In this document: piece after piece, positions 13,550-52,138 of the stretch
How positions within the stretch are numbered: the first letter of the stretch is position 1
Layout of the letters: each line of letters starts with the position of its first letter
NCBI RefSeq assembly: GCF_006345805.1
Contig: NC_043023.1
Coordinates: forward strand, 17,546,001 to 17,610,000
Length of the DNA: 64,000 nt
Reading direction: 5' to 3'
Source of the DNA: Octopus sinensis
Taxonomy: Eukaryota
Program-made: the position numbers and the translations under genes
The notes under the pieces: model-generated
Database searches by the model: none
What the model saw: the letters and a program-made list of their open reading frames with translations, nothing else
What the model was told of the DNA's origin: nothing

Positions 13550-14013
13550 AAGTAGCTTGTCTACCAGCCACATGGTTCCGGGTTCAGTCCTACTGCGTGG
13601 CACCTTGGGCAAGTGTTTTCTACTATAGCCTCGGGCCGACCAAAGCCTTGTGAGTGGATTTGGTAGACGGAAACTGAAAGAAGCCCGTCGTATATATGTA
13701 TATGTATGCGTGCGTATGTATGCGTGCATATATGTATATGTATGCGTTGCTTGACAATCGATGCTGGTGTGTTTATGTCCCCGTGGCTTAGCGGTTCGGC
13801 AAAATAGACCGATAGAATAAGTACTGGGCTTACAAAAGAATAAGTCCCGGGGTCGAGTTGCTCGATTAAAGTTGGTGCTCCAGCATGACCGCAGTCAAAT
13901 GACTGAAACAAGTAAAAGAGTAAAAGAGTAATATATTTACACATAATCTCAAATGCAGATAGATACGTATGTACACATAAATACGTAGATACATATATAA
14001 ATGTATATATATA

Positions 14014-14787: not shown

Positions 14788-14887
14788 NNNNNNNNNNNNN
14801 NNNNNNNNNNNNNNNNNNNNNNNNNNNNNNNNNNNNNNNNNNNNNNNNNNNNNNNNNNNNNNNNNNNNNNNNNNNNNNNNNNNNNNN
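14788..14887. other. Assembly gap (100 N)
   Basis: Run of N. Confidence 1.
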
Positions 14888-15599
14888 TAACATACTAAGA
14901 AATATTGACTTAATTTTAAAAATTGAAACTATTTTAAAATATTAGGAAGATCAAAAGTATTATATATTAAAAATAGGAAATAAACAAAAATAATAGATTC
15001 TACTATTTCTCAATTTCATAAAGTCTCAAAACAATTAACACACACATTAGAAAAATGTTGGCAATAAAACCAAAATTTTATTATTAAATGTTTATGTGAA
15101 AGATATAGTAAACACGTGGTAAGAAAATAATTATAATATAAAGCCAAATGTTAAACTAAATCAAACTTAAATATTACAGAAAGTACTATGTAAAACTAAA
15201 ACCTATGCAAAATGTTTCTTTTCTCAAGAAACATTTTTTTTTATTTTCGTACAAAAACTACAACATTTTATTGTACAAATGTTTCGTATAAACTGTTCTT
15301 TTACTCCAAACATTAAAATAAAATTTCAGAACTTTTTACTCAAAATGTTCCATCTTGGTCCTTGAGATAACCTTACGCGTGTCTTACCTTTTGTTCACAT
15401 ATTTCTGTTGTCCACTGCACATGAAATAATTCGCAATGAGTGCAGAGTAATCGAAGTATCTTGAATATATTTCGATTTGGATTCGTGTCCCTCCAAAACG
15501 GTGTGACACAGAAGTGCCCCAGTGTGTGGTATGTTACAAAATCTTTGAGCATGATGGAATGCGACCCTCACGCTTGGAATGCCACTTGAGGATAACACA

Positions 15600-17074
15600 T
15601 CCTGCTCTTGCAGACAAGCTCAAGACATTCTCTGAAACAAAAAAGAATTTTCTTGAAGCAAGCTAGGTTTGAAAGTAGAGGGGCATTTCGGCAACAAATT
15701 TCAATAATTGTCGAGACTTCCTATGAGATCGCCATGTGATTGCAAAGAGCAAGAAGAGCCATAATATCGGAGAGTCTCTCCGAAAACCAAGTCTACTACC
15801 TGTAGCAGAACTCGTTCAGGGGAGAGATGATGCATACAAGCTTTCCCCATTTCACTATCAAATGATACAGTCAAGTGAAGGATCGATGACTTGTCTGGAA
15901 AACATTAAAGATCAAATTCTCGACCAGGTAAAAGTGTGTACTGATGCGCTTCCGGCCATGCTTGGTCTGCAGTCAGGATTCATTGCTAGAGTGAAGGAAA
16001 ATACTTCATCTGTTGTAGTACACACCGCATACCTCATCGTGAAGCCTTACTATCCAAAACCTTCCCTACTGAAATTAGAAAACTCCTGAACGTGGCTATC
16101 AAGTTTGTCAACTTTGTTAAAGGTGGAGCCTAAACAGTCGTCTTTTTAAACTGCTGTGTAAAGATATGGATTTTGAAAGGAAGCATCGATTATTCACATG
16201 CATGTGCGAAGGCGATCAAAAAGGGAACATGCTTGGACAGCTTAATAAACGACGAGAAGTAGTGATACTTCTAGATTTACAACCGAAGGCAGATCTCCAT
16301 GACAATTTCTAGTCTGAAGACTTTCAGCTATCTCTAGCTTACCTGGCGGACAGGTATGCTAGAGAATGCTCTCGACTTTAAACTACAACGGTAAAACTTC
16401 AACATTCTCACACACCACGACATCATTGGAACCTTCATGATGAAACTCGATCTCTGAAACTATCGAATTCAGCGAGGAAATACAGCCAGTTTAGTTACTT
16501 GGATTTTGCTCTCATCCAGGGTAACTTTGATTCTGAGTTAAAGAAACAAATAATCACTCATCTAACTTGAAAATTGAATCATCAAATGCTTCTCAGATGT
16601 AGATGAAAAGGGTGAAGCTTGGATATTCATCAGGAACTTATTTCAGTGTGAAGTGACTGATGATTTGCATGAAGTGCAAGAGGACTTTCTTGAGCTGAAG
16701 TTCAACCCCTGAGCTAAGGGGTATCTTAAAACGTTATGGATCAAGTACCTTCTTACTTAGCCTCTAATCTCACATCAGATTCTTAGGATTTTAGCTATGT
16801 GTAGATCCACGAGGCTATGTGAGACTGCATTTTCCAGGCTGGTTGCAGTCAAGGCCAAGTACAGAAACAGGCTGAACGTCGAAAGAAACTTTCGTTGTGA
16901 ACTCCCTGGTATTCAACCAAGCATTCAAGAATACTAATACCAATCGTATTAAAGAAAATCGCTAAAAACATAGTTTATATTTTATTTAAAATCTGGGTGG
17001 GACTTTAATCATAGATGCAGGGGGTTCGTGGAAAGAATGACTAATCCTGGTAGTATAAAGGTTAAGGGACACTG
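15600..17074 (+). mobile_element. Decayed hAT (Buster/Charlie) transposase and right terminus
   Basis: IAKSKKSHNIGESL, VCTDALPAMLG and LCETAFS...KAKYRNRLNVE remnants; terminus AAAGGTTAAGGGACACTG followed by CTCTAGA. Confidence 0.8.
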
Positions 17075-17917
17075 CTCTAGATCAAAACTGATTGACATTC
17101 CAGACTTTCTCTAATACAAGTATATTTTGAATACATAATTCATTCTCTATTTTTAAACACATTCTTTGTTATCTTCTCTTCTCTTCTCCCTCTTCTTTTT
17201 CTTCTTCCTTTCTTCTCTCCTCCTTCCTCTTCTTCCCCTTGTTCTTCTCCTTCCTCTTCTCTCGTTACCTTCTTTCCGTTTGCTGCTGTTTCACTTTCTG
17301 TTTTACATGCTTTCTTCATAATTTACAAGTTTCCCCATTCACTTAATATCTCTAAAATTTTCATCACCCCCAATCCCACCACTCTCATTATTGACGTCTT
17401 CGTCCTTCTTGTCATCACTGTCATCATTGTTGTCTTCATTTTATCTTCCTCAATCTTCAACATCATCAAGTTCTTCATCGTTCTCTTCATTATCAACATC
17501 ATTCATTACCATGAAACATGGCGATCAGATGCAACATCTTCAACATCATCGTCATCAACACCAAGAGAAATATCACCACCAACATCATCAGCATCAATGT
17601 CATACTCCTTATCACTATAAACATGCTAATCACCATCATTAAAAGAGTAATCAACATTAACAACATCACCCCCATTCAACAACATAACATCTTCATCATC
17701 AAAACTAACGCCATATTTTCTTCACTTCTACCTAATCATCATATTAATCACTTCTCCGCAACATTATCACCATCATCATCATCATCATCATCAAGTTCAT
17801 CATGATCGTAATTTCCTTTCCCTCTCTACCTTTATCTAATTGATAAGCCATAATATTATAAATTTTGTCAAATCTTTTACATAAAATTTCTTCTTTCCTC
17901 AATTTTATGTTCCGTGT

Positions 17918-17989
17918 GGGTTTGTGGAATAATAAACTCCAGGAAATCAAAATAGGAACCTTCAGTAATCTTTCCAGGTTATCATATCT
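17918..17989 (+). pseudogene. LRR exon copy with a lost splice acceptor
   Basis: GLWNNKLQEIKIGTFSNLSRLSYL, donor GTAAGT intact; upstream reads TTTTATGTTCCGTGT where paralogues read TTTTATGTTTCAG. Confidence 0.7.
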
Positions 17990-18890
17990 GTAAGTTGAAT
18001 CAATGTTCTTTTCTAGTATTTCATTGACGGTATATTCCTAAATATGCAACATCTTCTCATCCTTCCATTTAAGCTCCCAATTCCGTCTTTCCAAAGATGT
18101 ATTTCATTGTTTATGAATGTCGGTGATTGTGATTGTGGGCCCATTTCTGTGATATGGGATATATGAGAGCATGATACATCAGGGAAAACACTGACTGCAT
18201 GCATATGTATATCTCTTGGTATGCGAGAATATTGACACGTACGAACTTTATTTCTAGATGGACGCTAAATAACATCCTTGTATAAGCGTTGTAGCTGCTT
18301 ATTCAGAACTAAATTATCATCTTTACTACTTATTTTTCCATGTTGTTGTTGTTGTTGTTTTTTCTTCTTCTTCTTCTTCTTCTTCTTCTTCTTCTTCTTC
18401 TTCTTCTTCTTCTTCTTCTTCTTCTTCTTCTTCTTCTTCTTCTTCTTCTTCTTCTTCTTCTTCTTTTTCTTCTGTCCTTTTCCTTCTAATTATCATCGTC
18501 AATTTTCTCACCGTCCGTTTCATCATCAAAATCATTAATTATCATAAAACACCGCGATCAGATGCAGAATCTTCAACACAAACATCGTCATCGCTAACAG
18601 TAACATCCCCACCAACAATATTATCATCATCCATATTATACTCGGCACCATCATAGACATACTAACCCCCATCATTATCAGAAGAATCGACATTAACAAC
18701 ATCACCTCAATCATCAGCATAATAACATCTTCGTCATCAGCACCACCACCATATTTTTTTCTCCTCTGCATCGTCAACATATTCATCATTACCACAACCA
18801 CCACCAGCACCACCACCACAATTATCATCATCGTCATCATCATCACCAGCGTCATCACCCTCATCATCATAGTCAACTTCATCCTCATGC

Positions 18891-18934
<44 letters not shown>

Positions 18935-19069
18935 TTCATCATCCAGTTTATCATCATCGTGATTTATATTCCATGTTTTCTTTTAATTGTTTAGTCATAA
19001 TTGATTAGCTATTCTGTTACACATGTGTCTTCCACACAAGTTCTTCTGAGCTAAATATTTATTTTACAG

Positions 19070-19141
19070 AGATTTGGATGGTAATGACATCAAGGAAGTC
19101 AAGGCAGAAACATTCCAAAATCTTTTGAGTTTAAGTACACT
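19070..19141 (+). CDS. LRR exon (72 nt, phase 2-2) of adhesion-GPCR-like gene
   Basis: TTTTACAG|A GAT TTG...ACA CT|GTAAGT; DLDGNDIKEVKAETFQNLLSLSTL. Confidence 0.85.
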
Positions 19142-19364
19142 GTAAGTTGAATCATTGTTGTTTATAGTATTTCATGGACGTTATATTTCTAAATGTTTAA
19201 GTCTTCCCATACTTCGTTTTATGCTCCTTCACACGTCTTTACCTTCACTATCTACCTATATCCAAAGTGTGTGCTATTTTGTATGAATGTCTTGGAATAT
19301 GAGGGCCAATTCCTGAGAATTGGGATTTATGGGTGTAAGAAAATTAACAGTAAATGTTACCCGT

Positions 19365-20274
19365 TAGAAAATAGTAAAAAGTGACAAAACTACAGAAGAC
19401 TTGTTTTAAAAGGTTAAAGAATATATATTTAAGTCAATATGTCTGAAGAATATTATAAGTTGTTTTCCTTACAATGACATAGTTTAGAAGAAAGACCGGT
19501 TTCGTGTTTAGCTTTTCAAATTTCTTACGTCGATATGTTTATGTTGAGAAGAGTTATCGTTATGTTTATGTGAAAAGAGTTCTAAATAAGGGGAGGTAAT
19601 AAGTGATTTCTTCCGTGTAAGGGAGATAATCGCTTAATTTTTTTTCTTTTCCTTTGGGGTGAATTTCTCTGTATAAGTATGTTGGAATGGTTAAGTCTGG
19701 GCTTGTACTTTTCAATGAAGAATGTTTCCTTGTTTAGTCTAGTTTGTGTTGATGATCCGATAGCACATTGGTAAAATGGACAGATTAAAAATTGTGGTAG
19801 TAGTTGCTTTGCGCATTTCTCAATGTGCTCACTAAAAGGTATCATTCTGTATTCTGGGAATGCAATCTGTTGTCGATGCAGTGTGCATCTACGTCTGAGT
19901 GATAGTCCCGTGGATCCCACGTAGTCTTGGTGGCAGCCCGAGCATTTTATGACATAAATTATTTTTGAGGCACAAGTAAAATTAGATTTGATCTTGAATT
20001 TCTGTCCCTCTTTGAAGAGGAATTCTGATCCTTCTAGCAGGTTTGGACATGTTGCACAGTTCGGTCTACATAAACATAACGATAACTCTTCTCAACATAA
20101 ACATAACTAAGTAAGAAATTTGAAAAGCTAAACGCGAAACCGGTCTTTCTTCTAAACTATGTCATTGTAAGGAAAAAAAATTATAATATTCTTCAGACAT
20201 ATTGACTTAAATATATATTCTTTAACCTTTTAAAACAAGTCTTCTGTAGTTTTTTCACTTTTTACTATTTTCTA
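19365..20274 (-). mobile_element. Truncated Penelope-like element with inverted terminal arms
   Basis: Arms 19365-19571 and 20068-20274 are inverted; minus strand encodes a GIY-YIG-like C-terminus (YVGSTG...RCTLHRQQI...RLNKETFFIEKYKPRLN). Confidence 0.8.
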
Positions 20275-20331
20275 TATATTCAACCACGTGCTTTCACAAA
20301 CCAACTTTCTTATCTATATCTATCTATCTAT

Positions 20332-20363
<32 letters not shown>

Positions 20364-20436
20364 ATATTATATATATATAATATATATATATGAATAAATA
20401 AATGTAGTTTAACGCATGTATAAATCAAATATTTTT

Positions 20437-20522
20437 ACTTTCGACACATGTTTCGAAAATTCCACTGATACCATTCAAAAGGATACACGGTATAAGCAAG
20501 GCAATTTTCTCTTCAGGGAAGT
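20437..20522 (-). ncRNA. Type I hammerhead ribozyme (inverted copy, one stem I mismatch)
   Basis: Minus strand: ACTTCC-CTGAAGA-GAAAATT...AATTTTC-GAAA-C-ATGT-GTC-GAAAGT. Confidence 0.65.
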
Positions 20523-22040
20523 GAAAAAACGAAACTCGTCAATACGACATTTTAGCAAAGAATGATGGATTTGTATAGTAATTAACTGAATGCTATTAAT
20601 ATTATTTAAAAAACGTTATCTGATATAACGTCAAAAGTAGCTTACAGAAAGAGCAGGGATATTAATAGTGAAGGTTAAATATAAAGGAAATTAAAGTTTA
20701 AATTATATATAATGATAGATACTACTTATACTTAAAGGTGTGTTTGCTTTACTTCCAAAATGTTTCCAACCAAAAGGTACAAAACGTTAAGAATAGTTTA
20801 GTTAAATTTGTCAGTAGAATGGGCTTAAAAATCGTTTTTCATGACGATATGATGAAGGCCAACTTTTTAGATATTACGCTTAATTTACACAGTGACTCTT
20901 ACTTCCCATATCGTAAACCGTTGACCAAATTTAAATACATTAGCAAATTTAGTAATCATCCTCGAGCAATTACTAAGAACTTAGTTAAGAATATATCATT
21001 TAGATTATCTAAATTATCTGCTAATGTTTATATTTTCAATGATAATGCTGAATTCTATAACTCTGCCTTAATTAAAGCAGGTTATACAGAGAAAATTTTC
21101 TACATTGATTCTACTCAGTCTAATTGTAAATTCAATAATGTAGATAAGATTTCTAGTCGTAAAAGAATTATTGATAACAATCATAACTTATGTACCGCTA
21201 CAAAGCGAATGAAGGGTTATAACCCTTATATAATCCCCTATTATCGTTCTAAAAGTAAATATAACACTTTCAAAAACAATTACGCTATAAATACTAGTAA
21301 AAATATTTGGTTAATAATTCCGTACGGGAGACAAATTAAATCTAATCTCCCACTGCTGTTTCGTCAAGATATTGTTAGGAATTTTCCAAAAAATTCTAGT
21401 TATTACTCTATTATCAATTCACATACGGTTAGGATCGGTTTTCCAACACATTGGAAGCACATCGTTAGAGTTATCTAAAAGAATTTCTATCTATTACTCA
21501 ACATTTAGAGATAGAAATAAGCGTAATAGTCTCGGCAAACTGATTTGGGATCTAAAAGACCACAATGAACAATTTCTTTTAGAATGGTTGATTCTCTCAA
21601 TCTCGATACCTTATGACAAAGGCAAGGAATTCTTTCTTCTCTGCAATTCTGAGCTAGTTTTCATTATTTTTTCTATAAGTACTCTAGTAAACACGGTTAT
21701 AGAGCGAGCATACAGATGTAAGCATTGGCAAAAACACACATTTAGTGCATATAAGTAGTCTCTATCATTATATATAAACTTTAATACAGATGTAAGCATT
21801 GGCAAAAACACACATTTAGTGCATATAAGTAGTCTCTATCATTATATATAAACTTTAATTATTAAACTTTAATTTCCTTTATATTTAACCTTCACTATTG
21901 ATATCCCTGCCCTTTCTGTAAGCTACTTTTGACGTTATATCATATAACGTTTTTTAAATAATATTAATAGCGTTCAGTCAATCGCTATACAAATCCATCA
22001 TATTTTGCTAAAATGTCATATTGACGAGTTTCGTTTTTTC

Positions 22041-22126
22041 ACTTTCCTGAAGAGAAAATTGCATTGTTTATACCGTTTATCCTTTTGAATGGTATCAGTG
22101 GAATTTTCGAAACATGTGTCGAAAGT
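22041..22126 (+). ncRNA. Type I hammerhead ribozyme in the Penelope pseudo-LTR
   Basis: Stem I ACTTTC/GAAAGT, core CTGAAGA 22047-22053, stem II GAAAATT/AATTTTC, GAAA 22109-22112, minimal stem III, GTC cleavage triplet 22118-22120. Confidence 0.75.
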
Positions 22127-22311
22127 AAAATATTTGATTTATACCTGCGTTAAACTCCATTTATTTACTCATATATTATACAAAGAATTGCACGTAAACA
22201 TGAAGTTTTTACCTTTATAAACAAGGAGTTACAACCTCTTTAATTGTGAGATTTTTGCTACCCTGGTAAATATTTATTTTTTCCGTGTTAATTGTTAACA
22301 AGGTAAAAAAA

Positions 22312-22346
22312 CACTCATTCCTTAATCTGTCCTCTTTAAGAACTCT
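22312..22346 (+). pseudogene. 3' half of an LRR exon (5' half lost)
   Basis: HSFLNLSSLRTL|GTAAGTAGAAT followed by the paralogous intron start; lies next to the Penelope insertion. Confidence 0.6.
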
Positions 22347-22906
22347 GTAAGTAGAATTATATGATTTTATAGAATTACATCAAGGTAATATTTCTAAACG
22401 CCGTAATTTCTTCCCATCATTCATTGTCGGAATCTGCGTGTGCGTGGGTGTGTCTTTTTGTTAGAGGTGGGGTATATGAGAGTGTCATATATCAGCAGCA
22501 TCCCCACCAGAATCCTTATAATCAATATCATAATCAGCATCACCACAGAAATGCTCCTCACGGTTATTATTACAAGAATATTCAACATTAACACAATCAT
22601 CTCCATCATCACAATGATAAAATCTTCTACAAACCATTCACTCTTCTCTTTTACATTATCACCATAAACATCACTACTGCAACCACAAAGTCCACTGCCA
22701 AAACACCTACCCCCTATGTTTCCCTCCTCTTCTCGCCCTCCACCTTCTCATAATCATTAACATGATGAATATTATCATCGTAACCATTATCTTCATGGCC
22801 TCTTCATCGTGATCTACATCCACCCACCATCATCCAATATTTTAGCCAAACTTCTGTCGCAGATGTGTTCTATACAATTCCTTCTTAACCCATTTTTATG
22901 TTTCAG

Positions 22907-22978
22907 ATATTTGAGTTATTATGACATCAAAGAAATCAAAGTAGACACCTTCCGAAATCTGTCCAGTTTCACATATCT
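22907..22978 (+). CDS. LRR exon (72 nt, phase 2-2), possibly degenerating
   Basis: TTTCAG|A TAT TTG...TAT CT|GTCAGC; YLSYYDIKEIKVDTFRNLSSFTYL; the LRR Asn is replaced by Tyr and the donor is weaker. Confidence 0.6.
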
Positions 22979-24135
22979 GTCAGCTAAATCATTGTTTCTT
23001 ATAGTATTTCGTTGACGATATATTTCTCAATAAGTAATGTCTTTCCATACTTAATTTTAGGCTCGCTCACCCGTCTTTCTAAGGATGTGTCTTTTTGTTT
23101 GGAAATCTGTGATTGCTAGTAGAACCCCATTTCTATGACTGGGATTATGAATGCATGATAATTCAGAGGAACCATTGAGTGAATGCAGGTGAATGAATCA
23201 GTGTGTGTGTAAAATTATGTCTCTGTCCGAAATGTGTGTTAATGTTTGTTAATGTATATAACAATGATTTATAATCCAAATCCACAGATTCGGATAATTA
23301 AGGGGAGGGGGGCAAAATACTGCACACAGCTTTATATATATATATATATATCATACTCCCATGGGCACAAACACACACGCACATACATGCACATGCGCAC
23401 GTAAGCACATACACAAGCACTCGCACACGCATTACGCCTACACAAACTCCACCAAACCACCTCCCAGACACACACACACGCACTCACAAACATGCGCACA
23501 CATACGCACGCACACGAATGCACACACCTGACACTCACAATCCCACGGATACACGTATATACTCACTAATACGCATACACGCACACACACACACACACAA
23601 CATGCACGCACACACAACAACACGCACATACACACACAAATGAGCCCACACATAGCTCCCATACACACAGCACACACTCATACATACACTCACACCATTA
23701 TACATACAGGTATACACCCATACGCACATACAAGCACACACGCATACATACACAAAGTAAAGCAGTTATGTTCCCCACACACAACCCCTACGCATACACA
23801 CACTAACACACACATACATACACACAGACACACACACACACTACAGACAAAACACACACACATACTTCAAACTACCAGTACCTGCCACTGACCATTCTTC
23901 CACGCCCATGGGTAGGTAGACACAAGAGCCACTCCTACTTCATTCTTCCTTGACCTTAAACGATACTAAGCCCAGCCACAACCACATACACACGTGCTAT
24001 CGTTACACACATACACACACACAGACCTGCGCGCATGCACATATCCACACTTACACACACATACCTCCTAATGCACTCTCCTGTCTTTGAAATAACTTTT
24101 TCTTCACCCATTCCCTTCCGGTCATTCAAAATGTA

Positions 24136-24341
24136 ACCGCGTGTGTACCGTCGGCAATTTTTCCTCCGTCCTCCCTTCTATGGATCTTTCCTTTTCCTAT
24201 GTTTCTGACGAAGAGCTCCGCTCGAAGCGTTAGATCCTCCTTCTTTCCTTCTTTCCTGAGCGTCCAATAACGCTTTACTTGTTCCACTTCCTCACGTTGT
24301 TGAGTTTTCTCTTTGTGTTTTCATGTTTGGATTAAATTTAA

Positions 24342-24420
<79 letters not shown>

Positions 24421-24742
24421 GTGTATGTGTGTGTATTCAAGTACAGGACATTGCCAATATTCATCTCTTATACTTAAATGGATGTGAATGTGAGTTTGAG
24501 GACATTTTTTGAAAGGGGATATACCGTCGGCAAGATATACCGCGTGTGTACCGTCGGCAAGTTTTCCTCCGTCCTCCTTCTATGGATCTTTCCTTTTCCT
24601 ATGTTTTGACGAAGAGCTCGCTCGAAGCGTTAGATCCTCCTTCTTCCTTCTTTCCTGAGCGTCCAATAACGCTTTACTCGTTCCACTTCCTCACGTTGTT
24701 GAGTTTTCTCTTTGTGTTTCATGGTGGATTAAATTAAATTGT

Positions 24743-24821
<79 letters not shown>

Positions 24822-24908
24822 TCAAGTACAGGACATTGCCAATATTCATCTCTTATACTTAAATGGATGTGAATGTGAGTTTGAGGACATTTTTTGAAAG
24901 GGGATATA
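24136..24908. repeat. ~390-bp tandem duplication
   Basis: 24136-24523 repeated at 24539-24908, including the same (TA)n(TG)n tract; differences are mostly small indels. Confidence 0.85.
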
Positions 24909-25429
24909 TGGGAGGTTGATAATTGAGGGGAATCATCTACAGCATGCACGTGTCTTGGTCTATGCACAAATATATGCAAGTGTATTAATATATGTGTATA
25001 ATATGTACGGCATTTACCTTTAGATGGAAGCTAAATAACTTTCTTGATTCACCGTTCTAATTGTGTATTTAGAGCTGCATATTTTAGACGATCGTTTTTA
25101 AACATGTCCTTTAATTGTTGCTCTTCTTCCTTGTACTTCTTCGTCTCCTTCTTCTGTTCCCTTCAATTTTAAATCGTCGCCCAAATCATTATCATTAATT
25201 CTATCTTCATTTAGTTCATCGTTATCCTGACCACAATCTTCATGATTCCTTCAATATTTCTTCTAAATTTTTATCCGGCACAATTTCTTCTTCTTCTTCT
25301 TCTTCTTCTTCTTCTTCTTCTTCTTCTTTTTCTTCTTCTTCTTTCTTCTTCTTCTTCTTCTTCTTCTTTTCTTCTTCTTCTTTCTTATCTTCTTCTTCTT
25401 CTTCTTCTTCTTCTTCTTTCTTATCGTTA

Positions 25430-25497
<68 letters not shown>

Positions 25498-26248
25498 CAG
25501 CGCTTCTGCAATTCATTCTGACAGTAACTTCCACATTAACGGGAGGCAGGAAATTCGTCTGCATTTCCCTTTGATGCATCCTTCAGGCACAACACCCTTC
25601 TTCTTCTTCTTCTTAGCCAGCCTGGGATTTATTCTTTTCCATTAATCAATGCATTTAATTGCTCTCCGTTCAATTTACGGCAACTACTGAACTATTGTAA
25701 CTAAAATCCCTGTACACCATCAGGCTTTGATGCTTTCCTATTGCATATATTTTTACTCATATTTCTAATAATGTCTTCTATGAAGTGAGTGGCCTCTTGC
25801 TGAGGATAAGCTGTTTACTTCAGGTTGCAGAGTCATTCAGCTGTAGTATTATGCTATACATGCTTACACCATACCTTATCCCAGAAAAGTCGAATTTTAT
25901 CAGCATCAGGGACTAATCTTGTACGTTTTTTATCGTCATTATTCTCTGGTCAAAATCTTTTTTTGGTCACTTCTAAATAATTTGTTTGGCTGGTATTGCT
26001 TAATCCATTATTCAAACCTATTCAAAACTTTGCTTATTTTGCATCTATGGGCTGCTTCAGTTCTTCAATTCCATTCTTCCTAACGTTTTCGAATTTCCAT
26101 TCATATTTAAGTTTTCCATTTCTTTTCAATGTCAATTATTGACGCTACTCTGCTCACAGAGTTTATATCATCAGAAATGTCTTTCCCTCCACTACCAAAT
26201 ATGGTTGAGAATGAGAGGAAGAATAGCAGCAGCAACAACACCACCACC

Positions 26249-26281
<33 letters not shown>

Positions 26282-26399
26282 GCATCAACACAATGAACAA
26301 CGATGGAAACATGAAGGCGGAGGAGAACACTAACACCGCTACCATTACTACCGCCAGGAGGACCAACCAGAGTAACAACAATAAGAAGGAAAGTGAAGA

Positions 26400-29115
26400 G
26401 GAAACGTGAAACACTAGTAAAGTTGGACACTGCCACCATTTCCGTGTCAAACAGAGGAGAAAAAAATTATTAAAGCAACAACATTGTTTGCTTCTATTTA
26501 TTTCCGTGTTAGAATGGAATGGGAGGTGGAACTGCTGTGTTGCCTCGGAGAATTTGGATCTCGAGATAAACACTATCTTCCTTGACTCAGACGGAAAGTT
26601 AGTCGTCCAGGATGTGATGAGGAGTGACAGGGGTGGCTTCACGCTGGTGGCTGTCTATCCTCCTACAGGAACATGGCACCCGGACTACTTCAAACTCCTG
26701 GAAGTTGTTTTCTCAGAACGTTTCGTCCTTTAGAGCTTATGGGCAACTGGAACGCTGTCTTACAGTCACGTTTGGACCGTTTAGAGCTAGCGGATAGAGT
26801 AGGTGGGTGCAAAAGTCTCGCAAAACAGGTCAGAAGTTTTCAACTGTCTGACAAGTACCGGCTGGATTTCCAGAACGCACCAGTATGGACTTGGGCTAAC
26901 CGCAGTGGGTCATCCAGGTCGTATTTAGATACAATTCCAGTAGGCCAGTGGACAGAAATAGTATAAGTTGACTAATTTTCAAAATCGTCACCTACACATA
27001 CCACACATTTGTGATCTGGGCAGGGATCCAGTTACTGCAATCTGGACGCCTCACTCCTGGTGTGCTCAGCTGACTGAGACCACATTACTAAATTAGGTAA
27101 GCGTGTACTAACAGGGTCAATACATAACGATAAATGGGGGTACGCTCTAAAAGGGCAATTGGAATAGAATCGATTATGTTTAGGAAGGGACTCGCGAATT
27201 AAAGCCGCTCGATGGGAACGACTTACAGAGGCTCAACGCAGAAACAGATCCACAATTCAGTCTTTGGTGGATCCAGGTGACCGAACGATACTCGAGCCCA
27301 AGCGGATGTGTGCCGGATTCAATCAGCAGGGATCCGGTTACTGGAATCTGAATGCGTCACACCGGGATGTGATAATGGGCTGCATGGCAGGCAAATCGCT
27401 TGATTTGGATAGTCTGCGTATTGGGCTTTACTATTATATGCCAGATTTGTTTGGCGAATTCTTAGCAGACTTCTACCGCCACTGACAGCAGAATGGAGAA
27501 AGCCGAGTTCTATGAGCCGAGGAATTGGAGAACTTTCAAGAAAGAACTCTAAGAAGAGGGATCGAATAGAAACTTTTCGGCCGGTAACTCTGCTGAACGC
27601 GGACTTCAAAATTTTGGCCAAGGTACTTGCGCAATCCCAATCAGATCCATCCACAACAATATCCACCTCATGAGACATATCATAGACAGTGTTGTTAATG
27701 AAGCTGGCATGAGTGGGACGTTGAACAGTTTAGATCAGCCTAAAGCATTTGTTAGGATCGCAGCAATGTACCGTGGTATCTCGTCGTAGTTTGGGTGAAT
27801 CATTACATTTTGGAACCATTCAACATCAGGAGATCGGCCCGTCAAAGCTATCCTCTCTCGCCTCTCCAGCAGATGATCAGTCTAACGCTATTAGAGCGAA
27901 ATTAGAGGTGGTGAGAGGTATCCCGCCCAAACTGAGACATGGAAGAACCGTGTCGGCATATGCAAACGACTTCACCGCCATAGGTTCAACGCTAAACATT
28001 CGGACCTGGTTGACACCTTTCTAAAAGAACTCGATGATGTGACATGAGCAACAATTAACTTGAAGTTAGTGGGCCTGCAACTCGGCGCTGGGAGAGACAG
28101 ATCTATGACTTCCAATAGCATTGTGGGACGCTGGACGGAATAACCTGTTAAATTGATCGGCGCCTGGCTCGGTCCTGAAATCCAGATGAAGAAAATGGAC
28201 GAGAGAGCGAGAAGGCTATCCCTGAAAGGTCGGGTGGAGTTTGCAAATGCATCCATCGAATTCGTCATCTACTACCGCCTCAAGACTGACCAATCTTCAG
28301 CGCCTAGTGTTCCGCTTTCTGTGGAAGGAATGTAATCCGCTGGTCAGGAGCTCCATTTGCTGTCAACACCCGCTAGCTTGCAGCAACTCCAGCGATTCTT
28401 AGAAGGTTACCAAGTGTTGTCGCCGTTTGTCAGAAGCGTTTTCTCACTACTTTTCCTTTTCACTGATCAAGCTTAGACCGAGGAAGGGAGACGGCCACCT
28501 ATAGTGTCGTCATGCGCCCACACTCCTGTGTCAGTCAGGCAATGCGGTCGTGGAAATTCCGTTATGGCGTCCTATAGAGGGTTAATGGCGGGTAAGTACG
28601 ACGATGTTCTCATGGAGTCACTTGGCGTCGACAAGAACGTGTTGGCTGGTCTGTTCCGGACAACTTTCGGGCCAAGGACTATGCATAATTTCTAGAAAAC
28701 CTTTTGGCTGGAAGTGATACCGTAGGGCACTGCTCGTTCGAGGTAAACTCTAGAAACAGAAGAACATTCATCCCGGCATACCCAGATACGCAGAGAGCGA
28801 CGAAATTGTTCTTCTCACTCACTTTTAGTGCCCTTATTTTTCTGAATTGCGGGTTTATGTCGAATATCTGCTGTCGCGTGGAAGACGAATCCAGATATCG
28901 ACTCAGTCCATTGTGAGGATAGTTTCGCTGCCTTTCTTCGCACCGAAATAGCAGGGTGTTTTTCGTTGCCTGGTATATTTATTGAAAGACGTTGTATGGT
29001 GGACCAGGTTGAAAGGGCTGAAGACAGATGTGAGTGTCACTGTTGATGTCACTTGTGCAACTAACATTTGGAAACTGTGAATAGGATGCAAGCTTCGAGT
29101 ACTTGTAGGTAACAT
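26400..29115 (+). mobile_element. Decayed L1/Tx1-type LINE ORF2 (APE endonuclease + RT)
   Basis: GKLVVQDV, LVAVYPP, MGNWNAVL, WTWANRSGSSRSYLD, FRPVTLLNADFKILAKVLA, SAYANDFT and LSLKGRV motifs with many frameshifts. Confidence 0.85.
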
Positions 29116-29314
29116 ATGTTTTCTCCTCCTCCTCCTCTAAATGTTATTACCCAACTTTCTAGGCTCTTCTCACAGATATCCAGCGTTCAAACTTTATAAA
29201 GGTATTTTTTTTAATCCTTCAATAAGTAATGATTTCACTTTATGATTATTCTTTCTTGTCAATCATTATCATCATCACCATCATCATTATCAACATCACC
29301 ATCATCATCATCAT

Positions 29315-29353
<39 letters not shown>

Positions 29354-29693
29354 AATCATCCTTATCGTCATTTTCACTTCTCTTTGATCTTACTTCTCAT
29401 ATTCTTCATTCTGTTCTTTCCTTATTTCATCCCATTTCTAGCGTTTGTATTATAGGCATTCGACTTCCTCTCTCTACTCCTTTTGCTTCTGTTTTGCATT
29501 TTGATGTTGCTTATCTTCCTCTGATCTCCTCCCCATCCAGACACCTCGTTCCTTCTGTCTCTTCCTTCTCTTCTTTGTATTCTCCTTCACCCTGGAAAAC
29601 TTTCTCCCACTCGTTTCCTCTTTATTCATTCTCTCCCAAATTTCACATAATTTTTCTACACTTGTTTTATACTTTCAATTCTTCATGTTACAG

Positions 29694-29765
29694 ATATTTG
29701 CAAAATAATGAAATCAGAGAGATTGAAGTAAGAGCCTTCCATGACCTTCCCAGATTAACAAATCT
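29694..29765 (+). CDS. LRR exon (72 nt, phase 2-2)
   Basis: GTTACAG|A TAT TTG...AAT CT|GTAAGT; YLQNNEIREIEVRAFHDLPRLTNL. Confidence 0.9.
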
Positions 29766-29970
29766 GTAAGTAGAATGCGTCTTGATGATAATATTTCATT
29801 TGTAATCATCAACATTTTCATCACTAGTATCATCATCAGTGACACGAAATTCGTAGAATTGATCATCATCGTGATCTGAAATCTTTTGCTTTCATCATCT
29901 AATTGCTCTGACAAATTCTGTCACAAATATATCCTATGCATTTGCTCATCAGCTCAGTTTTATGTTTCAG

Positions 29971-30007
29971 ATACTTGCGGTATAATGATATGAAAGAAAT
30001 CAAAGGA
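29971..30007 (+). pseudogene. 5' half of an LRR exon (3' half and donor deleted)
   Basis: TATGTTTCAG|A TAC TTG = YLRYNDMKEIKG, then a duplicated AATCAAAGGATTGA and a jump into paralogous intron sequence. Confidence 0.7.
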
Positions 30008-30729
30008 TTGATTAAAAATAATCAAAGGATTGAATAAAATTTCGTGACATATTTCTTAATATGTAATATCTTCCCCCGACCCCCTTTATTCTGAATTGTT
30101 TCTCCTTTTAATTTCTTCACCATTACTGAAGTTTTTCACTTTAGTCTTCATATTCTTCGTTCTCTGCTGCGACTTCATTCCATTCTACTTCTAGCATTTC
30201 TGTTTTTGCTTTTTATGTCTCCCTTCTATGCCTTTTGCTCTCGATGGGAAAATGTTAGTGGAAACTTATTTTTGCATACATATATGACTGTGTGAATGTG
30301 TATGGATGAGTGGAAGGGAGTGTATCAAAATGTATGTATATTTCGGCGTGTATATCATGTACGGTGCTTCCGTCGCCATAGCCACTAATTACTATCATCG
30401 ACTCTTCTTCTCCTTCCACATCTATTTCATCTTCTCTTTCTTCTTCTTCTTCTTCTTCTTCTTCTTCTTCTTCTTCTTCTTCTTTTCTTCTTCTTCTTCT
30501 TCTTCTCCTTCTTCTTCTTCTTCTTCTTCTTCTTCTTCTTCTTCTTTTTCTTTTTCTTTTCTTCTTCTTCTTCTTCTTCTTCTTCTTCTTCTTTTTCTTC
30601 CTCTTATTATTATTATTATTATTATTATGATTCTTTCTTCTATTTATTAATCGCCTTTTAATTTCAAGCTTTTCCTTATTTCATTTTACTTTCACGTCTT
30701 TCAATTCTCCAAGACTTTTCCTGCTCTCA

Positions 30730-31570
30730 TGAATAATCATGAATGAATTGGCGAAGATGAAATTCTATGTTTTAACATAGCTCAGGATTGGCAGCTCATG
30801 AAACATTGGAATAAAGTCCAAACGGAAGGTTTTAAAGTTATATTTGAAAGATTGAGGAAGAATTCTGGCCAAACCCCTGGATTTTAGGCATCATGAGTTA
30901 CTCCTTGTTTGACAAAGACTTTATCAACCCTTTTCCTGCCTTACCACAATATTTCTTATGGAAATTCTCATCAATGTCCTATTCCCACGTCCAGGTAAGT
31001 GCGGGGCTACTCACGAGCTTATTTTATGATCAGTTCATGCCAGATGCTCAAACCAGGTGATGAATGAGGCTAAGTGTTCTTATCCTAAAACCTTTTCGCA
31101 AACTCATCCATGGGAAACATTTGTCTCACTACACTTGTGTGACAAGGAACATCCTCTTACCATCAGAGATCATGCAGTTGAAAATTATCACTTAGACACT
31201 TTTGGTTTTCTCGAGAGCTGAAGCCAGACCTCAGCTGTCGCGTCAGTTTGTGCGCACATCTTGGGTGAATATCTTCTCACTCGAAGGTTGTGTTTCACTT
31301 TGTCGCAGATGAACTTCGCCCTCTCCAATCTTCTAAACTTTTCTCCTGGAGTATCAAAACTCCTCACAAGTTTCATATGCAATTTTGTTTTCACGTCTTC
31401 TATCACCAGATGCCAATAATCTTATGGATTGATTTGGATCTCTTCAGCTCCAGATTGAAATGATCCTTCTTGAGGTTATGACCTCCTTATGTAGCTTTCC
31501 TCTCCACTATTCCATCATTCTCAAACGTACACACAATTGTCTTGATAATTATTGAATGGACTTTGAAGAT
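30730..31570 (-). mobile_element. Possible decayed Tc1-like transposon
   Basis: Weak transposase-like remnants on the minus strand; no clear TIRs. Confidence 0.3.
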
Positions 31571-32379
31571 GGAATCTAGAGAATGAATTTCGGTACCATT
31601 ACTGAAGGACTGAATGATCTTAACCCACTCAACCTTGCTCAGTTGGGTGTGGCTGACACAAAACTATTTCATTCTGTTACCTTTCTAGCTAAATATCTCA
31701 AATGGTATTTCAACCATTCTTATAAAAACGTGTGTCAGTATGTCCAGCCAGCTTATGTGCAAAACATGTAACAAAAAGCAAAAAGTGTGTTAGTTTAAAA
31801 TTTTTCAAGAGTGTTTGAGTATGGCAGATTTGCTGTTACATATGTCTAAGTATATGTGCGAGTGTGTGTGAATGTATCAAATCTTAACCTATTCTCCATC
31901 ATCATCATTAGAAACTTCACTAGCACAAACGTCAACATGAAAATCATTATCTTCATAATTATCCTCATTAGAATCATTATCACAATCAGCACCAGCAACA
32001 TTTTCTTCAACACTACCACATTCTTCCTGACTCAAAACTATGTACGACGACGACGTCTGGCACCACCACCCCTCTTCCTCCTCTTCCTCCCCTTCACCAA
32101 CACCACCTTGTGAAAAGAAGCTGCGAAAAAGCGAAACCGAATCAGATGAAAATATAAAAACGAACACTAGTGACTTCTACAGATTTCAAAAGTATTTACC
32201 TTAGTGCGCTACAGCCTATGGCCAGGAGGATAAGCGAAATACTCAATTAACAATTCGCAAATGCTTTCAATTCCTCATTAGAAAATATGCAAATAAGCAA
32301 GCTTGATAAGTTCCTACAGAAAAGAAAGAAAACATCTGTTATTTCGATGTGAACTTAGTCACGGCTCTAATGGTTTTCT

Positions 32380-32730
32380 AGGAATACTTTTAAAGATTTG
32401 CAAGAAAGCCCTTCCAGAACTACTGCAGATACTTTTCCAGAGCTTCCGTACATTTGGGCAACCATTCCAAAGTGTTAGAAGAGGTTATATTGATTAAGAA
32501 GGAAGTAGAGAAAACTCTAAATATTACTGGTATAATTCTCTGATCTCACATATTAGGTAAGTTATGAGACTCGTTGTCGGAAAGTAGTTGATTACATTTC
32601 GAGAACAAAACCTATTCACTAACATACAGAATGGCTTCTGTCCAGGAAGGAGTTGTCTTACTCAGCAGCTACAGCAATGTGACTGGGTACTGAAACATCA
32701 GGTGAACTTTTCAAATATGGATGATATCTG
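32380..32730 (+). mobile_element. CR1-like RT fragment
   Basis: ILLKICKKAL...LFQSF and LFTNIQNGFCPGRSCLTQ motifs. Confidence 0.6.
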
Positions 32731-33289
32731 GGCATCAATATTCCAACATCAGCCATCTTTAACCAGTCTGCAATTAACATGTTAATGATTTTAATTTGTT
32801 GTGAAGTGTTTCAATGTGCGTAGATTTGTAATATTAACAGATTTTTATTGCAGTCAGAACCTTGTGGGCGTGACCAAATATATATTATATCATGATTGCC
32901 AGAGTAGAGGCTTCATTATTACGTTAAGAGTTTTGGAAGAACATCTGTTAATGAAACAATGTGGACATTAGTTAGTTCTATATGATACTTACTTTTGCCA
33001 TTAACCGAATGCCACAAAGTTTTTGACCATTTTTGACCAATAGCAGTACTGTGTATTGTATAACTAGAATTTAATTTGAAAATACTTTTTTAGTATGCTG
33101 GCATCCGGAATCAGTAAATGTATCATGTTTAACTAGTGTACTTTACGGGTAATTCATGATACTACATAGTATTTTGCACATTTTCCAATTTTCTAGAATT
33201 TAGATAAGATTTTAAAGTATTATTTCCCGTGAAGTAGAATTGAAGTGTCTATGGACTGATACTATTAAGTATCAAATTTGTAGTAAGGT

Positions 33290-34676
33290 ATACGGTAAAA
33301 TTTGACAGCTGCTCGTTTTGCGCCATTATTATATTTTGACAACCATTATTTTTTTTAGAAAGCTGATACATCTAGTTCTTTATTCTTTGCACTTTATAAA
33401 GTATTTATTAATCGATATTTGCTATTTTTGTTTAAGAATCGATAAGTCAGAAATTTGTACAGTTTTGAAATATGAGTTCTCTCACTGACAGCTCGGAATA
33501 TTAATGGGGAATTTCATTCTAATGTTATTACACAGCATACAGTATCAAATTGGTTTGCAAAATTTAGTTCTGGTAATTTTGATCTCACAAATGAGCAATG
33601 CGGTCGACCAGAAACAAAGTTGGATAATGTCGAACTGAAAGCAACCGTCGAGTCTGATCCATCTCAAAGTGCCTGTGAATTATCGTTGTTGTTTCGTGTT
33701 AGCAAGCAATTTTGGCTCTCCTAGTTCAAATCGGTAAAGTGAAAACGTTGGATAAGTGGCTTCGACATGTATTCAATGAAAATCAGAAATAGCAACGTTT
33801 GGAAGCCTACATTATGCTAGTTTCTCGTCGCAAAAATGAATTATTTTTGTATCGTATTATAATGTGATGAGAAATCGATCCAATGCCTCAACTGTAGAGG
33901 TTAACCACAATGACTGGACGAAGATGAGCCAACAAAACAGAGTCCAAAACGCAAAAGAAGCTGATGGTGTGTGTTTGGTGGTCTGGTCCAGGTGTGATCC
34001 GTTATGGTTTCATTACTCCTGGCTCATTAATCTCAGCCGAAGTACACTGCAGCCAGCTGGAACAAATGATGCAGAAAAGTACAAAAAACAACCTAGATTA
34101 GTCAACAGGGTCCCTTGCCAACAAAACAGAGTCCAAAACGCACAAGAGCTGATGGTTGTGTGGTTTGGTGGTCTGGTCAGGTGTGATCCGTTATGGTTTC
34201 ATTACTCCTGGCTCATTAATCTCAGCCGAAGTACACTGCAGCCAGCTGGAACAAATGATGCAGAAAAGTACAAAAAACAACCTAGATTAGTCAACAGGTC
34301 CCTTCTATTTTACTGCAAGACAACGCCGGATCACACAACGGAAAAATAACTTTGGCGAAACTACAGGTTTTCGAGTTGGACGCTCTCTTTCATCTACCTA
34401 CACACCCGATATTGCCCCCACTGAATACCACATCTTTCAGAATTTCACTAACTTTCTGTTAGGAAAAAAAACTTAATTGCGATGATACTGTAAAATAAGC
34501 CTTCCAGGAATTTATTGTTTCTAGACTGCCAGGCTTTTACAGTTCCGGTCCGCACAGGCTACCGCTGAAATGGCAAAAGTGTATTGAAAATATGGGTGCA
34601 TACATTGAAGAATAAAACTATTCCATGTATTTACAAAACATTGGTTTTTAATAATTTTCATACTTGACGACCTAAT
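33290..34676 (+). mobile_element. Mariner element, pseudogenised transposase, with an internal ~189-bp tandem duplication (33928-34116 / 34117-~34304)
   Basis: WFAKFSSGNFDL...GRP, LLQDNA and PDIAPTEYHIF motifs; terminus ...GACGACCTAATA. Confidence 0.85.
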
Positions 34677-35178
34677 ATAAAAGATATATATGTTTTTCAA
34701 AACAGTTTAGAGACAAACATTAATTCCTACATATATTTTGAATATGTTTCTTAAAGTTGTGAATTGGTGTTAAGATAAGTGTTTTAATTATTCATGATTA
34801 ATTTTTGCAATTTCGTCATTATATTGCTCCTGGAATATATAATATTTGTACATTCGATGAGAATGTGATGTAAAACCAACATCGTGCAGAAAACAATGTC
34901 TGATGGTCTATTCTTATAGGTTATCTTATAGCTTATTTTCGTCCATCTTTTGATATTCGGTTATCACAGAAACCTTCTCTTCCCTCAGGATATCTAAGTG
35001 AGATTAATGGAAACTTACTCTTGTCCAAACTATAGGCAGAAAACTCATAGATAAATAAATATCTTTGCAGTAAACATGAGCTTTTATTTGCTTAGTTTAG
35101 ACAGTATATTAACAGTAGAAAACAGACTTGTTAATTGTACATATTCTAACTTATAGAATACTTATTTCTTTTTTCCAG

Positions 35179-35250
35179 ATATTTGAGCAACAACCAAATA
35201 CAAAACTATGAGGATGGCGCGTTCTTATTCCTTCCCAGTATTAATTACAT
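35179..35250 (+). CDS. Last LRR exon (72 nt, phase 2-2)
   Basis: TTTTCCAG|A TAT TTG...TAC AT|GTATGT; YLSNNQIQNYEDGAFLFLPSINY(I). Confidence 0.9.
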
Positions 35251-35539
35251 GTATGTACAACAATTCTTTCTTTATTGGAAAACCAAAAGTCTTTGTAAAC
35301 CCATGAATAGATGCCATCAGACTAAACTCATGAAAACATGTCATCAGACTAAAATCATAAAAAATGATATCATCAAATTCACAGTTGTTTAATTCAGTTG
35401 ACAATAAATAGCAATGTTTTGGTTTTAATTTTAATGTGGCACCATGAATATTTCTGAGTATTGTGTTTTGTCATTGCAACGTCAGTGTTCAAACAACATG
35501 AAGATTGGTTTGATATAGTTTCATCCATGTTCGGAAATA

Positions 35540-36457
35540 CGAGCTGTATTCAAAAGGCGTCCAATATTTGGGTACACAAGCATCCAACCTTAGTCCATTT
35601 CATAAATTTTATTTAATCTTCTTCAAAATACTCCTCTTGGGATTTCACTCACTTGTCCTAAGTTTTGTCATCGTTTCTATCATTTCTGGAACACCTTCTT
35701 GAGAGTGTTATGCAGCTCTGCTGTCCTCTCTCCACTCGGATCGCTTCTCTTTCAGCGTCGTTTTTACTTTTGGAAAGAGCCAGAAGTCACATGGTGCCAT
35801 GTGGGGAGATTTGGGAGCCTATCGAAAAAGGGGTCTGTTACTATTGATCATGAAAGCTTGGATTACGAAGTGCATTCAAAATGTATCTGAATTTATTTTT
35901 TCGCTGATATTCTCTGCATGCACAAATCCTCCGTTAAAATATAATACACTGATCCTCTGCTTATTTCAACTTCGTGAATAATTCCCTGGATTGTTACATT
36001 ACGATCTTCGATGACTAATTACCGATGCTTCTCAATCAGCTCCTCGTTTCGCCTTCTTTATGGCCTGCCTCAGCGTGCTTCACTCGCCTCTGAGGTTCGG
36101 CCATGTTTGAAGTGGTTGTACCACTCTTTGTTCTACGTTTTTCCCATGGCATCATTAATAAGAGCCTGCCGAATCTTCTCGTTGGTGTCAGTTTGAGTAA
36201 CACTCAGCCTTCTTCGAAACTAAATGCAATATCTCTGCTCGATGTACCCCTAACACCCGGAGACTGGTGCAGCCTACTGGCGTGGTACACTGATGCGTCA
36301 TACCGGCGTGGTATACCAAGGCGTCAGGCTGGCGCGGCATATTAGCGAGGAAAGTTCCAGGCATATGCAGGAAGGATGGCGTCACATACCACCTAAAGGA
36401 TTTTGCCCACGCAGCATTAGTTTTGGCGAAAAAATCATACATTTTGGATACATTTCG
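35540..36457 (-). mobile_element. Internally deleted mariner-family element
   Basis: TA|CGAGCTGTATTCAAAA...TTTTGGATACATTTCG|TA imperfect TIRs; transposase remnants on the minus strand. Confidence 0.65.
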
Positions 36458-36502
36458 TACATATAATAATTTGAAGCTGGTTCAGAAGTATACAATACAA
36501 TG

Positions 36503-36535
<33 letters not shown>

Positions 36536-36975
36536 TTTAGGAGATTCAAAAGCTGGAGAATAGCTGTGAAAAGGTTAGAAGTTTGAGTGAAAATACCCTT
36601 TCAAGACGAGGAAAAGAAGCACAGTCAGCAGATTCAAACTGCACAATTCAAATTATACATGAGCAGTCAGTACTATTGAGCTAAATGATCACTGACACTA
36701 AACGGTGCCTTTAACAAGCTTAAATTTTAACGTTTGGAATTTGGAAGCATTTTTCATAAACAAACATCAAAGTTTTGAGTGTGTTCGATTCTATATATAT
36801 ATATATATACATACATATATGCTGAATCCCTCTTCGGTCATGACTGTCCATGGGATTGCACCTAGAATGTTACCCTCCCAGGGCAAGTCTGGGAGGCCAA
36901 GATTATTTATGTGTATATATATATATATATATAAATATATGTATATATATGCATATATATATATGTATATATATG

Positions 36976-50887: not shown

Positions 50888-50928
<41 letters not shown>

Positions 50929-52076: not shown

Positions 52077-52138
<62 letters not shown>

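Follow-up and report, generated by a model that had tools for sequence, protein, structure and literature searches.

An array of LRR exons in Octopus sinensis: candidate tip of an adhesion GPCR, likely rebuilt among sister genes

We analysed a window of 64,000 nucleotides of Octopus sinensis DNA (contig NC_043023.1, positions 17,546,001 to 17,610,000 of the forward strand), together with its flanks. It holds an assembly gap, seven copies of an LRR exon and the first part of the gene body, whose non-LRR exons start at 41279 and reach about 24 kb beyond the window end. The features are as follows, in window coordinates unless stated.

14788-14887, no strand: assembly gap of 100 N, at which sister alignments break
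17918-17989, plus strand: LRR exon copy without its AG acceptor (GTGT where intact sisters have AG)
19070-19141, plus strand: clean 72-nt LRR exon, phase 2-2 (AG-72 nt-GT)
19348-22318, no strand: intronic repeat pieces (GIY-YIG) with inverted copies, from self-BLAST, presumably Penelope-like
22319-22346, plus strand: 3' LRR exon remnant that includes the donor site, about 28 nt, fused to a transposon-like repeat end
22907-22978, plus strand: LRR exon with AG acceptor, weak donor (GTCAGC) and the ladder Asn changed to Tyr
29694-29765, plus strand: clean 72-nt LRR exon (AG-72 nt-GT), one close copy at C12047:25447
29971-30006, plus strand: 5' remnant of an LRR exon, about 36 nt, with a deletion and a 22-bp tandem duplication
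30723-30725, no strand: patchwork junction where C12047-like sequence gives way to A/C/D/E/F-like sequence, from sister alignments
35179-35250, plus strand: terminal LRR exon, a conserved family marker with 30-31 genome matches
41279-41448, plus strand: LRR C-terminal cap exon, with an excess of replacement changes here too
45510-45601 and 48418-48601, plus strand: two exons of a Cys-rich Ly6/uPAR-like module, from tblastn
50551-50645, 54467-54519 and 57198-57355, plus strand: three exons of a predicted SEA-like module, from tblastn
62422-62536, plus strand: next ectodomain exon; the gene runs on beyond the window
65057-79258 (extended window numbering), plus strand: HormR-like and GAIN-like exons, continuing the gene
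79748-79897 (extended window numbering), plus strand: GPS exon (PF01825, 58.4 bits, cut-off 22.5)
80605-88330 (extended window numbering), plus strand: 7TM, with the match to PF00002 (7tm_2, 35.5 bits, cut-off 20.6) in the last exon

An earlier note, made from the sequence alone, had placed seven LRR exon copies here, and a profile built from family exons recovered exactly these seven (E 1.5e-20 to 1.4e-5). For training, 107 of the 171 family exons were used, all of them differing from every window exon by 16 nt or more; the next real match reached E 0.21, and ten shuffled windows gave E 0.17 at best. Pfam LRR_8 matched four of the five full-length copies weakly (E 0.0015-0.028), under the curated cut-off. 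Sequence inspection confirmed that the copies at 19070-19141, 29694-29765 and 35179-35250 are clean as claimed, being AG/GT-bounded 72-nt exons with open frames and with one base ahead of the first full codon and two after the last, that is, phase 2-2. The copy at 22907 is indeed weakened: its GTCAGC donor, found in 3 of 171 family exons, is common to C12047 and C6355, and its ladder Tyr to C12047 only. The missing acceptor at 17918 was likewise found; AG is intact in all four close copies of this exon (2-9 nt different), and the 17918 exon type is joined to the 19070 type by splicing in contigs of run X3. The two supposed half exons are both real remnants, but the one ending at 22346 retains only about 28 nt and the one starting at 29971 about 36 nt. 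The former is in an equal state in C12047 (98%), and the counterpart of the latter is a whole exon at C12047:4177. The repeat at 19348-22318 matched GIY-YIG at E 0.004, under cut-off, and its contig depth is very high in X5. Of the motifs said to recur in the flanks, the upstream one occurs at 17521 and at 18554 rather than 18553, and the downstream one, GTAAGTTGAATCA, is exact after 17989 and 19141 but not after 22978. Flanks described as paralogous are so for 17918, 19070 and 22907 (74-81% alike downstream), but likeness is low for 29694 and 35179 (53-67%), all as raw values without a background control. No further LRR exons were found within 100 kb on either side of the window.

Hand splicing from the last LRR exon (35179) to the stop gave one open frame of 994 aa, all 19 exons keeping AG/GT, in which a long adhesion-type ectodomain lies in frame with the 7TM. 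GPS and 7tm_2 matches above cut-off in this open body agree with the earlier proposal of a receptor and specify an adhesion GPCR. The GPS sequence reads ...HL/TSFAL, whose HL/T motif we take to be the cleavage consensus, and the best solved relatives of the body are ADGRG2 (E 1.5e-12) and other adhesion GPCRs. The Cys-rich module matched UPAR_LY6_2 at E 0.009, under cut-off. The module at 50551-57355 may be SEA, a label given without a database match; in the predicted structure of paralogue P0017 it has the order strand-helix-strand-strand-helix. An LGR/GRL101 identity was rejected: a scan of 264 kb found neither LDLa nor 7tm_1 motifs, and the 7TM is class B. Judged from sequence, the seven exons encode an adhesion GPCR's LRR tip. 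In existing annotations the family's members go by unrelated names (slit-like, chaoptin, LRRC15, SLITRK, Ly6), so that the family stays hidden. No database protein identical to the window gene's cap exon was found, the best being 84%. The earlier sequence-only reading had missed the N gap and the remaining exons of the gene.

Sister alignments A, C, D, H and I all begin exactly at 14888, and the sisters have more LRR exons upstream. A search for a signal/LRRNT exon found nothing credible within 100 kb on either side (best E 0.08); such an exon is present at five places in sister stretches. The missing signal/LRRNT exon of the window copy probably sits in the gap at 14788-14887, which likely hides further LRR exons as well. 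An alternative, which we regard as quite unlikely, is that the window copy is decaying or 5'-truncated and serves at most as an exon donor to working sisters. The empty signal exon search would fit this, as would the broken or weakened state of four of seven LRR copies versus 0/17, 0/7 and 0/5 in complete sister arrays, and among the listed loose ends of the putative RNA runs none is specific to the window copy. Against decay stand the intact splice sites and single frame of the 19 exons that lead from 35179 to the stop codon, the break of the sister alignment exactly at the N gap, and the 21 broken LRR copies in other sister stretches.

Three gap-free sister arrays contain 5, 7 and 17 LRR exons. 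LRR exon number and order vary between sister genes, with one LRR per symmetric phase-2 exon, and duplication of exon-plus-intron units with gain and loss of LRR exons is upheld. Among 171 distinct clean family exons, 153 distinct six-residue concave words were counted. Unplaced contigs may be alleles or hold errors. The window array is a patchwork whose blocks are 86-96% like different sisters, and the penultimate LRR exon of sisters A/C/D/E/F is absent at the 30723-30725 junction. The birth-and-death mode proposed earlier holds, but because of this patchwork much of the turnover appears to be between-sister exchange and not only within-gene duplication. Some broken LRR copies may be assembly errors. 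It is very improbable, however, that the broken copies and the patchwork junctions stem mainly from consensus errors in long reads and from chimeric joining of near-identical sisters during assembly. This explanation would account for the acceptor change at 17918, a messy local multi-base difference in the window only, and for the garbled C12047 copy of the 19070 exon; many arrays terminate at gaps, and no contig among those listed (X1-X4) bridges the 30723 junction. But other contigs contain both the remnant at 22346 and the donor at 22907, exon ends specific to particular sisters appear in contigs of the putative RNA runs, and assembly error predicts stops and random changes, whereas stops occur in 0/171 exons and changes cluster on concave codons.

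The runs are putative RNA, none being recorded as RNA; X1-X4 were compared over 30640-36890 and X2-X5 over 18960-23300, so that copies 17918, 29694 and 29971 lie outside the compared spans, and contig depth is unable to rank exons. Loose contig ends coincide with predicted splice boundaries, at 19070 and 19141/19144 and at 35179 and 35250. Among the loose ends listed, none uses the window gene's own 29694 or cap exon, the partners being sister-type. No 19141-to-22907 joint and no end at 22907 or 22978 is among the listed joints and loose ends, which is no evidence either way. Database isoform models of two paralogues lack single 24-aa repeats, and those of a third differ by whole repeats. Exon skipping in the family is known only from these models, which suggest that single repeats may be left out.

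The claim of diversifying change at concave-face codons was borne out by counting. Over 500 random matchings of exon pairs (37-38 independent pairs; changes were counted, not fitted with a likelihood site model), pN was 0.241 (0.209-0.266) at concave codons, 0.052 at other and 0.010 at framework codons, versus a pS of 0.077 over all codons and an intron flank divergence of 0.043. At concave codons silent divergence was 0.086 (pN/pS about 2.8), and the ratio of concave pN to flanks was 5.6; greedy lowest-flank pairing biases flank divergence low (ratio about 9), hence the use of random-matching figures. As a control, the 7TM compared with two sisters gave pN of 0.017 and 0.042 with pS of 0.031; in sister C9305 pN exceeds pS, which means that the body is not everywhere under strong constraint. 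In the predicted structure of P0017, strands lie at residues 23-25, 47-49, 71-73 and 95-97 with pLDDT of about 90; the prediction is unreliable in the Cys-rich part (pLDDT <50 at 176-270). Silent divergence in LRR exons is about 1.8 times that of the flanks, so conversion tracts may inflate exon divergence, and this excess is also what speaks for neutral repeat turnover, with concave codons unconstrained or being hot spots of mutation or conversion. That reading is scarcely credible and already largely refuted: relaxed constraint predicts pN close to pS, not a threefold difference, and at the concave codons themselves silent change falls far behind replacement. The roughly threefold replacement excess over silent change at the predicted binding face suggests that these are likely fast-diversifying recognition receptors.

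By sequence likeness, the window gene belongs with the octopus-specific 'group 3' expansion of adhesion GPCRs (Ritschard et al. 2019, PMC6408891). P0012 matches most body exons, with 303/544 residues identical (56%) over GAIN and 7TM, and its cluster contains A0A0L8GYR2, which PMC6408891 lists in group 3. In the accessible parts of that paper, LRRs are reported in 5 of 22 members, and the receptors are described as orphans with a proposed role in neural wiring; positive selection is reported at branch level for group 3 and at no individual site, with expression peaking in the axial nerve cord, suckers, skin and gills. The LRR tips could accordingly mark the identity of neural or epidermal cells, with self-recognition of the protocadherin kind in arms and suckers, or act as chemotactile receptors rather than pathogen sensors, which we consider unlikely. 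The nerve cord, sucker and skin expression favours it, as does those authors' proposal that group 3 complements protocadherins (PMC6408891, as far as available). Foldseek rows listed were all LRR matches, and the top ones include the neuronal LRR adhesion proteins LRRTM2, Slit2 and NgR; TLR and VLR chains are among them too, so the fold is non-discriminating. Group 3 is also expressed in gills and skin, and a threefold replacement excess between copies only about 4% apart would fit an arms race better. Exon turnover, coupled with selection acting at the predicted binding face, points to an arms race, not to the proposed neural wiring.

We therefore favour, at a probability of roughly 0.6, the reading that the array encodes the LRR tip of an adhesion GPCR expanded in octopuses, a tip likely rebuilt among sisters under concave-face selection, whose ligands are likely fast-changing and foreign or non-self. 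Each phase 2-2 exon encodes one 24-residue repeat of the tip, which is likely rebuilt when sister genes undergo unequal crossing-over and conversion, and selection would favour new residues on the predicted concave face. Each concave strand is predicted to form across an exon-exon junction, from position 23 through a split Leu to position 1 of the next repeat. Because the strand spans the junction, gain, loss or skipping of an exon would give a new strand pair with frame and fold kept. By analogy with the receptor class, ligand binding, GPS cleavage and tethered-agonist signalling would be expected; microbial, parasite or allo-ligands are suggested by the selection pattern. Sister rebuilding and concave-face selection together make it likely that the family recognises fast-changing foreign or non-self ligands. 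More tentatively, and with the odds against it, octopuses might possess a VLR-like LRR repertoire on adhesion-GPCR signalling that is diversified by germline change and splicing without somatic rearrangement. Exon exchange between sisters, skipping and concave selection would then give skin, suckers and gills a large set of binding surfaces for microbes, parasites or non-self tissue. Exon turnover under selection at the predicted binding face is a candidate means by which a mollusc lacking antibodies, or an arm that has to distinguish self from non-self, could acquire a recognition repertoire.

Glycoprotein hormone receptors and LGRs are of the rhodopsin class, and their exon number is not known to vary. 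They share with the octopus family a GPCR with an LRR ectodomain built from phase-2 single-repeat exons (PMC11378527, in part). Group 3 shares GPS with an adhesion 7TM, LRRs, tandem clusters and human ADGRG6 among the nearest sequences, but the accessible text of PMC6408891 describes no one-repeat-per-exon arrays, exon turnover or selected sites. Our search, which covered literature outside subscription journals and the supplements of PMC6408891, turned up no study of octopus adhesion GPCRs that deals with turnover of their LRR exons, and neither did a term search of the available text of PMC9068888, PMC9795677, PMC10138644 and PMC13428168. The octopus receptor family and LRR exon shuffling are each already known; it is for their combination that we found no paper. 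Brown algal ROCO genes (Teng et al. 2024, PMC11378527) share phase-2 exons of 72 bp that each encode one LRR, as well as exon shuffling and diversifying selection, and have alternative splicing and a proposed immune role; ROCO proteins are algal GTPases, whereas the octopus repeats form an extracellular tip on an animal 7TM receptor. Tetrahymena LRR arrays (PMC6564038, in part) likewise consist of single-repeat exons of phase 2-2 whose number has grown by unequal crossing-over, but with 90-bp exons and 30-aa repeats, in thousands of genes of a ciliate and with no GPCR. Lamprey and hagfish VLRs share 24-residue LRR modules and concave-face variation (PMC13428168, in part). VLRs are assembled somatically from intronless cassettes, whereas the octopus modules are germline spliced exons, flanked by AG and GT, and family contigs break at their splice sites.

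The seven LRR exon copies claimed in the earlier note, five full-length at 72 nt and two remnants, were all located again in the window (G000:C27:17546001-17610000), and the state given for each was borne out. A profile built from 107 of 171 family exons, none of them close to a window exon, recovered exactly these seven copies, while the best E value in shuffled windows was 0.17.

LRR exon copies and LRR cap exon in the window
17918: LRR copy lacking the acceptor AG
19070: clean LRR exon
22319-22346: LRR fragment
22907: LRR exon with a rare donor (3/171 family exons), ladder Asn gone
29694: clean LRR exon
29971-30006: LRR fragment
35179: clean LRR exon
41279: LRR cap exon, placed by tblastn

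The remaining exons were placed by tblastn of relatives against the window and the adjoining DNA downstream. After the cap at 41279 come, in order, a Cys-rich Ly6/uPAR-like pair, a predicted SEA-like module, and HormR-like, GAIN-like, GPS and 7TM parts. Nineteen exons starting at 35179, with AG/GT boundaries chosen by hand, gave one open frame of 994 aa, and GPS and 7tm_2 domains scored above Pfam cut-offs. A query of 40 residues around the last LRR led to an 'ADGRG6-like' protein; all named relatives were Octopus proteins, and the nearest solved sequences were adhesion GPCRs. The window gene is 56% identical over GAIN+7TM to the protein P0012, which clusters with A0A0L8GYR2, a listed member of the octopus-specific group 3 (PMC6408891). 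The window gene retains its 7TM part. Its front has six close copies and its Cys-rich exon five, all at at least 92%, and its last 7TM exon has two at at least 95% among 38 matches, a difference that fits either truncation or assembly gaps. The upstream neighbour on the + strand (C27 ~17461700-17492100; window -84300 to -53900) is also an adhesion GPCR belonging to this family, with HormR-like to 7TM exons starting just past an N gap. In three close sister genes (C27:17792600-17795700, C8:71487300-71490600 and C9305:8100-12600) the three SEA-like exons are unmatched and the exons either side are kept, a whole-domain loss in the stalk. A GAIN-like exon pair is duplicated at C9305:15853-18756, two cap exons lie at C27:17804488 and 17818260 with an N gap in between, and the closest sister (C27:17768092, - strand) has a last exon with one stop within the compared stretch and an alignment gap at one acceptor.

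The signal/LRRNT part is a single exon present at five places in sister stretches, and it was not found in the 100 kb upstream of the window. Since five sister alignments begin precisely at an N-gap edge, 14888, with further LRR exons beyond it in the sisters, the window array probably has more than seven copies and is not complete in the assembly.

Eleven sister stretches were scanned for LRR exons. Three contain a complete array, running from signal exon to terminal LRR without a gap, with 5 (C9503, duplicated terminal pair included), 7 (C27:18.30M) and 17 (C27:18.67M) clean exons, in agreement with the birth-and-death array proposed earlier; in the other eight the array is cut short by a gap, by a contig end or by the boundary of the DNA compared. 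The penultimate and terminal LRR pair is duplicated at C9503:89775-102411, and two LRR copies (C27:17978141 and 17994948) are apparently one codon short (69 nt) with the frame kept. The window array itself is a patchwork of blocks matching different sisters.

Blocks of the window array and their matches
14888-19348: C6355 (96%) and two C27 sisters
19139-29242: C12047, ~95%
29281-29873: C12047, one other place, 95%
29758-30242: C12047, another separate place, 86%
30723 onward: five other sisters, mostly 91-94%

Exon 17918 is whole in 4/4 close copies; it is present in the 17.83M sister, which lacks 19070. The penultimate exon of five sisters is missing from the window. The weak 22907 donor occurs in three copies, two of which have lost the Asn, so 22907 would fit decay following donor weakening. 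Some LRR copy lesions may be assembly errors: the C12047 copy of 19070 appears garbled, contigs that are unplaced may be alleles, and no contig bridging 30723 was found among the matches listed.

Other elements in the window
2870-3413: a common short interspersed repeat in three tandem copies of 183 bp
10673-11722, + strand: ORF of 349 aa that includes a zinc knuckle (E 0.0009) and is likely the ORF1 of a retrotransposon
14003-14787, 33450-34650, 26600-28500: what we take, from translations and sequence, to be mariner-like transposase relics and a reverse-transcriptase-like relic

One mariner-like relic adjoins the N gap that ends just before 14888, and one has a 189-bp tandem duplication.

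The DNA compared holds 171 distinct clean LRR exons together with their flanks, all of them free of stops, beside ~21 broken ones. Concave positions (22, 23, 1, 3, 4 and 6) were assigned by the LxxLxLxxNxL rule and chosen after the variability of some had been noticed; in an AlphaFold model of the paralogue P0017, strands lie at residues 23-25, 47-49, 71-73 and 95-97, centred on exon junctions. From 159 exon pairs (84 exons) with flanks within 10%, 500 random matchings, each into 37-38 independent pairs, were used in a counting test that did not model recombination. Predicted concave codons carried 0.241 replacements per site, compared with 0.052 for the other variable codons and 0.010 for the framework; silent sites and flanks gave 0.077 and 0.043. 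The concave replacement/silent ratio was thus 3.1 (2.7-3.6), which supports the diversification at variable positions suggested by the earlier note; the signal came from positions 1, 3, 4, 22 and 23, with little from 6. Since silent sites exceed flanks, conversion may contribute to exon divergence. The cap exon (41279-41448) likewise displayed a strong excess of replacements over silent changes when set against sisters (e.g. 14 to 0 and 12 to 0), whereas in the 7TM pN was 0.017 and 0.042 with pS 0.031.

In contig runs that we guess to be RNA, loose ends at 35179, 35250, 19070 and 19141 run on into other family exons, and hence the family uses the predicted splice sites. Their partners among the matches listed are sister-type, save one 17918-type end common to the window gene and two sisters. 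Predicted isoform models of paralogues in the databases vary by whole repeats: five for a 1208-aa and three for a 617-aa paralogue each lack one repeat (24 aa in the former), and seven of a third gene span 477-525 aa.

Because the exons are symmetric and lie within look-alike introns, unequal crossing-over and conversion would add, delete and swap repeats with the frame unchanged; as each strand is divided between two exons, every such event would create new strand neighbours. Selection would hold the framework and favour new face residues. The LRR tip is predicted to bind a ligand, and the GAIN/GPS-7TM unit would pass on the signal, as it does elsewhere among adhesion GPCRs. The diversification is most likely driven by a ligand that is foreign or non-self. 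The published proposal for group 3 receptors (PMC6408891), a neural or sucker identity code, is a less likely alternative.

Exon turnover in this octopus family is real. The family itself is already described in PMC6408891; our literature search found no report of such LRR exon shuffling with selection for octopus adhesion GPCRs. Brown algal ROCOs (PMC11378527) and Tetrahymena (PMC6564038) are published cases of this exon design in combination with shuffling and selection.
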